From: Escherichia coli
GTDB lineage: Bacteria > Pseudomonadota > Gammaproteobacteria > Enterobacterales > Enterobacteriaceae
Strand: one strand, 5' to 3'
Assembly (NCBI RefSeq): GCF_016903815.1
Contig: NZ_CP069973.1
DNA: 64,000 nt
Shown here piece after piece: positions 45,778-48,177 of this stretch; position 1 is the stretch's first letter, and every line of letters begins with the position of its first letter. Made by a program: the position numbers and the translations under genes. Below the pieces are notes generated by a model. That model saw only the letters and a list, made by a program, of their open reading frames with translations, searched no databases and was not told the origin of the DNA.

Positions 45778-48177
45778 TTATTTTAGTATCCATCCGGTAT
45801 TTCCTGTTCCTGTTTTTTTTTGATACCAATCACCATTATAATCAATGTACATTGACCCCTGAGGTGCGGTCACAACACCCTCAGGTGAACCGGAGCCTCT
45901 ATAAATTCCAAAGAGAGTTGTACCTCTTACTTTCTCGTATGCAAACAACAAACCATCTGAAGCCCTTCTGATACGCAACGGTTCGTGCTCTGAGTCCGAT
46001 GCAAATGTAGTGGTGCCGTTTGAATCTGTTTCCCTGGAAAAACTTCCATCTGTTCTTGTTCCTTCAATGATCGAATTTGGGTAGTTTGGATCATCAGATG
46101 AATGTAACCTAATATAGGAACTATTTGATGCTGATACCCCCCTACCCCTTAAAATCAATCCCTTAAATGATGACGTAAATAGTGCCTGGATTGAGCCATA
46201 AACAGTGTTATCACTACCGTTTTGCTGATCGTATATTCTTAGTCTTGAGCTATTATCATACATAATAGCGTTGAAGTACTCACCAAGACGTTCGCTAAAT
46301 GCAACAATATTAAAAGCATTGCGCCATCTAAATGATATATTTCGCCCGCTTTCTCCGGCATCTACACCTGCATTACTTGAAGCATTGGTTATGCCAGAAT
46401 TAAGGTTCTGCTCATCGTTGTTACCAGTCGCTGGTCGTATAGAGTAAATTGTCTTTTTCTCAAGAGAATAGCTACTTCCCCATCCATAATCTGTATCAGG
46501 ACTCCAGTCTCCAGAATTTGCATCCTTGGTTGTTTCCACCCAATAAGAGCCATTTGATGGAGGAACACCAATTATTCCAGAAGTCTCAATAGATGATGCA
46601 GCCCATCTTCTTCCACGCCAGTTTACAATATTAGCTCCTGCCCTCCATGTTTCTATGCAGCTTATAATTATTTCTTCGCCACGAATAGTTAAACCTTCCG
46701 GCTCGAATCTGGCTGGATTCCCAAGAGTTGGATGGTTAAGCAACCCATCGCGCCCATATTGCGACCTTGCATCATCGATATCTAATTTTCTTAGTAAATT
46801 ACCTGTTAAATCATATGTAAAGATATGATGCTTTCCAAAAGCATTAGTGCCTCCCTTAAGTATATGTATATATCTTCCATCAGACGCAATACCTTGTACA
46901 GAGTAAGCGCCTTCAGAAGGTGAGTCGCTCATTTCCCAAACAAACATGGGGTTTGCTAATGTTTTATCTTCAAGTTTATCAATTGATATTTTATCGTATA
47001 TAAATACAGTTCGTTTAGCGGCATCACTCTTTGGTGTATTAACCATTATTAAAAGACGACCGTCAGAAGAAATGGCAATTCCTGCACGATTGTAATCTTG
47101 AAATGGGTGACCGCTACCAGTAATCCCCCATACATTATAACTTTTTACGTCAGACTGAGTTGTTCCTGCCCCTCGCCAAGTTATTTTACTAAACCCTTTG
47201 CCTGCAGACTCCCCATCTTCACCTGAATTGGTTACACTTGATGTATATAAATATACTTGACCATTCTCCACCATGGCAGAAAGATCAAATCCGTGCCCAA
47301 GGTTTAATTCTGGAGAATACGCAACATGGTTTACTACCCTTCCATCATCATAAAGATTAAACTCAACAATACGAACTCTTTCTTTATCCGACCAGGTTGG
47401 CCCAACAGGCCGTTGTGTGACAAATAGTTTTTCAATGCCATTAACACGGCAATATGCGATCCCCTGTAACGCATTTCTGGCATTAGGATAAATTTCTGTG
47501 TTTGTTTCTCCCTGAAAACCAAAAAAAGGTTCCATCATTTTTCTCTGCGCAAGTTTGTCAGTTTCAAGTAGACGAGAAACGGAAATAAGAGAGCCATTAT
47601 CTGCAACAATCCTCCCAATACCTCGAGCAGAAGATACATCAACTTCGAGAGTATTTACTGCAAAATCGCCATCAGGAACAAACATTCTATAGCCTGCGTT
47701 AGAGAATGCCTCAGTAGCGTCAGTTATTCCATCACTGATAGCCCCCCAACCGCGAACATCTTTGTCATCACGCCATCGTGCAATCTGCAATTCGGGATAT
47801 TTTTTAGCACCATCCGGGTCTTCTAACTGCTGCCGTAGCTGATCCGGGTCATACTTCAGCACATTAGGGAAATAGAACTGCTGAGTGCCATATGCATCAT
47901 ATACAGCCATAGAATGGCCTTGAACAGTTACGAATTTGGCAATCTGCCCGTTATATACCGGATATCCAGCAGCGTTAATGATGATTGGCTGCGAAACAGG
48001 AACATGAGAGCCGTCTTCGTTCTCTACATAAACCTGAATCTGGTTTTCTGGACTTACCGGGTCAGTGTCAATTTTTCCGATATAAATTTTGCCGTTGGCT
48101 ACTGCTTTAAAAGAACGCGCCATAGTGAAGAGTTGCGAAGGCATACTCACTACAACATTGGCTGTAATGTCTGTCAT
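45778..48177 (-). CDS. Tailspike protein (P22 gp9-like N-terminal head-binding domain, divergent receptor-binding domain)
   Basis: N-terminus [41 protein letters not shown]...[15 protein letters not shown] closely matches the P22 tailspike head-binding domain as recalled; the remaining about 680 aa are unrelated to P22 gp9. Confidence 0.85.

Follow-up and report, generated by a model that had tools for sequence, protein, structure and literature searches.

The homopolymeric contingency loci of bacterial surface genes undergo phase variation by slipped-strand mispairing. Programmed slippage likewise makes use of nine-base A or T runs in coding regions, as in dnaX of Thermus thermophilus (A9), mxiE of Shigella (T9) and IS elements (9A; PMC1088944), and AAA-AAA supports -1 frameshifting in E. 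coli, slippery heptamers of this kind being found in E. coli dnaX (A-AAA-AAG) and in pDEST17 (C-AAA-AAA; PMC1851650). A tract comparable with all of these, formed by nine consecutive A on the coding strand, lies near the 3' end of a prophage tailspike gene in the 64 kb stretch of E. coli DNA analyzed here, which is called the window throughout (table 1). The tract shares with contingency loci the location of a homopolymer inside the gene of a surface-recognition protein, with the Thermus, Shigella and IS sites the length of nine bases and a place toward the 3' part of the gene, and with the sites of E. coli dnaX and of pDEST17 an in-frame Lys-Lys heptamer. The gene itself has its closest described counterparts in the tailspikes of Lederbergvirus-type podophages, namely P22 gp9, Sf6 gp14 and HK620 gp9.

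The comparisons presented below favor, with a probability of roughly 0.87, the reading that this A9 is an ordinary, incidental coding homopolymer that is held at nine bases by purifying selection and has no function of its own. On this reading the tract ceases to be a candidate for a slippery site within the gene of a receptor-binding protein, and it matters little.

Table 1. Position of the A9 tract, of the tailspike gene and of neighboring elements in the window
Feature	Position	Strand	Basis
Tailspike gene, 799 codons plus TAA stop (2,400-nt ORF)	45778-48177	-	ORF list and translation
N-terminal head-binding domain, residues 1-113, P22/Sf6/HK620 type	47839-48177	-	Pfam and PDB matches
Receptor-binding part, residues 120-799, predicted beta-propeller platform and C-terminal beta domains	45781-47820	-	AlphaFold2 model
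C-terminal module of about 39 aa, residues 761-799	45781-45897	-	Motif comparison
A9 run on the coding strand (T9 on +)	45813-45821	-	Read directly from the sequence
11 codons (T789-K799) replaced by any +/-1 change of the tract	45781-45813	-	In-silico A7, A8, A10 and A11 variants
DUF1796 putative cysteine peptidase	44270-44926	-	
GDSL-type esterase/lipase	45122-45658	+	
A-run, 10-bp hairpin and T-run between the GDSL and tailspike genes	about 45664-45697		By eye
IS2 copy, 1,331 bp (TnpA 54852-55259, TnpB 53989-54891)	53975-55305	-	

A P22-type tailspike with a modeled propeller platform

The identification of the gene as a tailspike, part of the original prediction, is borne out by matches of the N-terminus of its product to the Pfam family Head_binding and to the N-termini of tailspikes in the PDB. 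The Pfam match (PF09008) extends over 113 profile positions in residues 1-113, with E = 1.2e-66 and 222.5 bits against a cut-off of 24. The sequence matches in the PDB are N-termini of the Sf6, P22 and HK620 type, with E values from 3e-64 to 2.5e-44; the entry for Sf6 gp14 (7sg7) matches residues 1-118 with E = 3.3e-64 and about 90% identity. The protein also matches phrog_16355 over its full length, and its gene is annotated as 'phage head-binding domain-containing protein' in RefSeq and as 'tailspike' in phage ON470594. The gene is also placed as in P22, Sf6 and HK620: it lies where a P22-like late region ends, next to the integrase end of the prophage. According to the RefSeq annotation of a near-identical region, the virion gene cluster is of P22 type, with the genes for major capsid, portal, gp4, gp10 and DNA ejection upstream of the tailspike and intS downstream of it; in the near-identical region of E. 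coli 15.TR.026_OXA, the tailspike ends the P22-like virion cluster and adjoins two accessory genes, with intS at tRNA-Arg.

Beyond the head-binding domain, no sequence relatives of the protein were found in the PDB, and the solved tailspikes deposited there do not match its receptor-binding part. An exhaustive protein search places this part in a family of 712 representative proteins at E <= 0.001; a word-indexed search with the last 240 aa, which served to define the C-terminal motif discussed below, returned six partial matches to this terminal motif, without close relatives. The AlphaFold2 model of residues 120-799, built from an alignment of 88 sequences, has a mean pLDDT of 91.6 and a pTM of 0.82. 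Its best Foldseek matches in the PDB are the receptor-binding proteins of the Staphylococcus aureus phages phi11, 80alpha, P68 and NF5 (E from 1.9e-12 to 1.5e-10), propellers of the GH43/GH62 type are also among the matches, and the 50 best matches include no beta-helix tailspike. The receptor-binding part is thus modeled as a beta-propeller platform, in contrast to the right-handed beta-helix of the P22, Sf6 and HK620 tailspikes; a pectate-lyase-like beta-helix domain, considered as a candidate, was set aside since the model matches beta-propellers. The closest structural matches, phi11 Gp45 and its counterparts in 80alpha, P68 and NF5, have a five-bladed propeller platform that corresponds to PF21311 (Phage_RBD_prop), and the score of this Pfam profile in residues 293-462 of the tailspike is 16.5 bits, below the gathering cut-off of 23.7. 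The model shows a common predicted fold class for phi11-type proteins and the tailspike, with sequence identity of only 10-13% and TM-scores of about 0.3 over the whole chain, values that do not demonstrate membership of one family. A descriptive by-product of our analysis is therefore a P22-type tailspike predicted to carry a beta-propeller receptor-binding part instead of a beta-helix.

Of note, E. coli A0 34/86 (L002, positions 3000-5576) and CEA601S (L005, positions 3018-5594) encode an 858-aa protein whose N-terminus differs from that of the tailspike but in which residues 149-799 of the latter recur at about 98% nucleotide identity. This protein is encoded in another type of prophage, at yfgI, where it adjoins genes for a holin, a GH19 endolysin and a DUF2514 protein; the sharing looks like an exchange of the receptor-binding module between phage types.

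The A9 tract in its reading frame and in the C-terminal module

Direct reading confirms the T9/A9 run in the tailspike gene, which is the sole match of AAAAAAAAA on both strands of the window and its only homopolymer of at least eight bases. The run starts at nucleotide 2357 of the gene, the second base of codon 786, and comprises the last two bases of CAA, both AAA codons and the first base of ACA in the series CAA AAA AAA ACA, which encodes Q786, K787, K788 and T789. The distance of 14 codons from the stop stands as originally described, Q786 being the 14th codon from the end; the 13 C-terminal residues that a slip had been expected to replace become 11 (T789-K799) when the variants are constructed in silico. 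Removal of one A (A8) gives a protein of 797 aa and addition of one (A10) a protein of 811 aa, the tails read in the alternative frames after a slip being of 9 and 24 residues.

A run of this kind is within chance expectation and shows no excess, because both shuffled sequences and the codon usage of the gene yield such runs. In 100 dinucleotide-preserving shuffles of the window, A9/T9 matches averaged 2.03 and at least one was present in 72. The tailspike gene uses AAA and AAG in a ratio of 24:7 and CAA and CAG in a ratio of 9:18, with ACA accounting for 22 of its 50 Thr codons; with this usage, the probability of obtaining A9 given the peptide QKKT is about 0.088.

The two Lys codons of the tract lie in a C-terminal module that the tailspike has in common with six proteins (P0001-P0006) and with many members of the family. 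In otherwise unrelated proteins this module stands 3-4 residues before the C-terminus or is repeated internally. Eight examples, when aligned, have the invariant columns G, G, P, E, G, V, G, K, G and W, which include the Lys at K787 and the final G-W, the stretch GTGNTGW being the best conserved and most recognizable; the next position, K788, is variable in homologous modules and most often E. In the model, the strands of the module are M776-D779, W784-K787 and W796-L798, the last of which closes a three-strand meander, with pLDDT of 83-88 over the last residues. According to this model, a slip would spare the first two strands of the module and take away the conserved loop together with the last strand. 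The expectation that such a slip is probably neutral did not hold, as the residues lost include GTGNTGW and the last beta-strand of the model; judging from the monomer model and the conservation of the motif, which together suggest a structural role for the last 11 residues, a slip at the A9 would not be neutral.

The module may merit a study of its own. Its consensus, GSPEG-x-V-x-AP-x-GS-x-Y...Y-x-K-x-x-GTGNTGW, spans roughly 40 aa and ends many phage receptor-binding proteins, and in very large proteins up to five internal copies of it are present; the proteins that bear it are P0001-P0006, P0008, P0011, P0013, P0119, P0151 and P0153. No Pfam family covers the module in the tailspike or in the six motif-bearing proteins, a search of the PDB with the motif profile gave no true sequence relative, and a literature search on three strings of the motif retrieved no paper. 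The designed propellers 'Cake' and 'Pizza', which came up as possible relatives, were rejected as spurious, their similarity consisting of a repeated G-x-Y-x-G-x-Y pattern with E > 50 for each stretch.

Tract length and the sister allele among relatives

Comparison of the tract in related prophages, which had been suggested as a check, found its length to be always nine. The C-terminal region of the gene is present in 43 of the 5,426 complete genomes of E. coli that were sampled. The allele of the window is carried by 31 of the 43, all of them 100% identical over the 70 nt centered on the tract; additionally, a query of 2,551 nt that contains the gene is identical in the window and in phage vB_EcoP-683R2. 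A pattern search in IMG/VR and metagenomes, with exact flanks and 6-14 bases allowed between them, retrieved eight contigs from the former and two from the latter, all with spacers of nine bases. The spacer is A9 in eight of the ten contigs (six from IMG/VR and both metagenome contigs), which match the window at 100% over the same 70 nt, and A4GA4 in the remaining two, from IMG/VR. Neither A8 nor A10 was found among the E. coli genomes, phage records and IMG/VR and metagenome contigs examined. With the length fixed at nine and free of variants, the outcome is, as far as length is concerned, the one that the original prediction itself had named as speaking against it.

Carriers of the A9 allele come from gulls, humans, a dog, rivers and wastewater, and at least three chromosomal contexts of the prophage (argW/intS, ybhB-bioA and one other) are represented among the sequences fetched. 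That no slip variant occurs among the 31 genomes carries less weight than this number suggests, because many of the genomes may be close relatives, three of the assemblies represent one strain and the gene differs by at most 1% within the allele; moreover, the lengths taken from assemblies are consensus lengths and not those within populations. The polymorphic codons within the A9 allele comprise 30 synonymous and nine nonsynonymous ones, indicating purifying selection on the gene.

Homopolymers are typical error sites of long-read and older pyrosequencing assemblies, and the A9 tract is a homopolymer, whose length in the window might therefore be a sequencing or assembly error. This explanation is refuted by the concordance of independent sequences, since the A9 is found unchanged in 31 genomes assembled independently of one another, in a phage genome and in metagenome contigs; the length of nine also preserves both the reading frame and the conserved motif, and we consider the probability of an artefact to be practically negligible.

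The only variant of the tract is synonymous. A sister allele, present in 12 of the 43 genomes and in the two IMG/VR contigs with A4GA4, reads CAA AAG AAA ACA and encodes the same Q-K-K-T; the 12 genomes were fetched or could be aligned without indels, and their proteins end in GWVLK*. The prophage Gally of strain LF82, also available as a GenBank phage record, carries the AAG allele and is 97.6% identical to the window query; it is a P22-like podophage that is abundantly produced (PMC9928086). Across the two alleles the amino acids are thus conserved and the A9 run as such is not, because a synonymous G interrupts it in the sister allele. The A9 and AAG alleles are separated by 12 fixed differences, six of which, including the tract position, fall within the last 40 nt of the gene. 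Downstream of the stop codon the alleles are unrelated, and the pair of DUF1796 and GDSL-esterase genes occurs together in exactly the 31 genomes with A9, DUF1796 alone being found in two more. This distribution suggests a mosaic junction at the 3' end of the gene, and the A9 version may have traveled with the downstream cassette.

Disrupted copies of the tailspike are confined to a pair of genomes with the AAG allele, and the lesion lies far from the tract. In E. coli 23AR1217 (L001, positions 3018-5417, at ybhB-bioA), the gene is split by a nonsense change of W546 from TGG to TGA, which was verified; the same change in 24AR0180 (H36) is deduced from its matching annotation and its identity with 23AR1217. 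An IS1 insertion in NZ_CP180393.1 and NZ_CP196266.1 (H16 and H17), initially a candidate for a further disruption, was rejected as such, since it falls in the intergenic equivalent of 45700-45739, just past the stop codon of the tailspike.

These comparisons bear directly on the possibility that the A9 is a phase-variable site, at which replication slippage turns a working C-terminus of the tailspike into an altered or disabled one and back again, so that adsorption or host range varies heritably and reversibly. Nine bases are long enough for raised indel rates (PMC8510543; PMC1088944), the gene affected encodes a receptor-binding protein, and the frame entered after either slip remains open for only 9-24 more codons. 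However, the length polymorphism among isolates that defines contingency loci is absent from the tract, since the 31 genomes, the phage record and eight contigs are all free of A8 and A10 alleles. The sister allele, furthermore, breaks the run with its synonymous G, and its carrier Gally makes abundant virions (PMC9928086), and a slip would ruin the most conserved residues of the module without bringing in any other conserved sequence. In the absence of length variants, phase variation appears to be largely refuted and we regard it as extremely unlikely; the proposal of a slippage-prone site acting as a switch in a receptor-binding protein thus finds no support.

Recoding, selection and the surroundings of the tract

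A different role would be programmed recoding, in which transcriptional slippage on the T9 template, or -1 ribosomal frameshifting on A-AAA-AAA, yields a defined minority of 797-aa or 811-aa subunits with a role in the trimer. We consider this very unlikely, even if several features of the site recall the systems introduced above. The tract has the length associated with programmed slippage (at least nine A or T in a coding region; PMC1088944), and it contains an in-frame slippery heptamer of the type X XXY YYZ (A AAA AAA, both AAA codons being in the zero frame), 8 nt upstream of which an SD-like GGUGAU can be read directly. This hexamer corresponds to the Gly-Asp codons of the conserved motif and is present in the AAG allele too. 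Heptamers of this sort are common in E. coli, since in-frame C-AAA-AAA is found in the ORFs of K-12 at about 81% of the 412 occurrences expected (PMC1851650).

Unlike the slippage sites of Thermus dnaX, Shigella mxiE and IS elements, the A9 run is not conserved in the sister allele, which produces the same protein with A4GA4, and no second frame is conserved with it. The -1 frame of an A10 variant enters intergenic DNA, where the two alleles are unrelated to each other, and homologous modules usually have K-E at this place, with which a long run of A is impossible. The site also differs from those of E. coli dnaX and pDEST17 in having no downstream stem-loop and from A-AAA-AAG in ending with AAA. 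No stimulatory RNA structure was found downstream: the fold of 201 nt around the tract has z = 0.33, with 125 of 200 shuffles folding at least as well, and contains no helix starting 5-9 nt downstream of the run. E. coli RNA polymerase, moreover, slips poorly on A runs of the sense strand, its slippage being undetectable below eight A and reaching only a few percent on the short runs of T that were assayed (PMC6260861). The sequence holds no evidence of two products at the tract. A more elaborate proposal, which we judge exceedingly unlikely, is that the run, gained by one synonymous change with respect to the AAG of Gally, makes a reproducible minority of tail-replaced subunits of 797 or 811 aa that enter or poison the trimers and so tune adsorption.

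An incidental homopolymer under purifying selection would account for these results as follows. Within the conserved module at the C-terminus of this P22-type prophage tailspike, two AAA codons for Lys happen to stand between CAA and ACA, and the run most likely originated from a single synonymous AAG/AAA difference, which either arose in place or came in when the 3' end of the gene was acquired by recombination. Indel rates in E. coli climb exponentially with the length of a run (PMC8510543), and nine A or T is about the length at which slippage of RNA polymerase and counter-selection in coding regions become visible in many bacteria (PMC1088944). Replication slips at the run must happen, and each would swap the conserved GTGNTGW end for unrelated sequence. 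The tract would stay at exactly nine because slip mutants are probably purged whenever the phage must make working virions. From the literature, E. coli RNA polymerase and, to a lesser extent, the ribosome on A-AAA-AAA probably give rise to a small percentage of frameshifted transcripts or products; a low level of unprogrammed slipped product is thus plausible, and we would take it as waste rather than programmed output.

The surroundings of the tract present further aspects. P22-like phages often carry genes that modify the O-antigen between intS and the tailspike; in the window, this place is taken by two accessory genes, those for the DUF1796 putative cysteine peptidase and the GDSL-type esterase/lipase. 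A scan of positions 44100-48500 for promoters and terminators found nothing at the tract. The T9 on the + strand was considered as the terminator of the convergent GDSL gene and rejected, because no hairpin precedes it. Between the convergent GDSL and tailspike genes, an A-run is followed by a 10-bp hairpin (AACCATCTCA / TGAGGTGGTT) and a T-run, an arrangement that by eye reads as a bidirectional intrinsic terminator, on which the consensus scan made no call.

Finally, the window contains a copy of IS2 with a 5-bp target duplication, which breaks an HNH endonuclease gene within the P22-like late cluster and is missing from the otherwise near-identical prophage of NZ_CP032145.1. The insertion lies transcriptionally upstream of the block of genes (hypothetical proteins, a DUF2824 protein and a DNA ejection protein) that leads to the tailspike, and because of this position the prophage copy in the window may be crippled.
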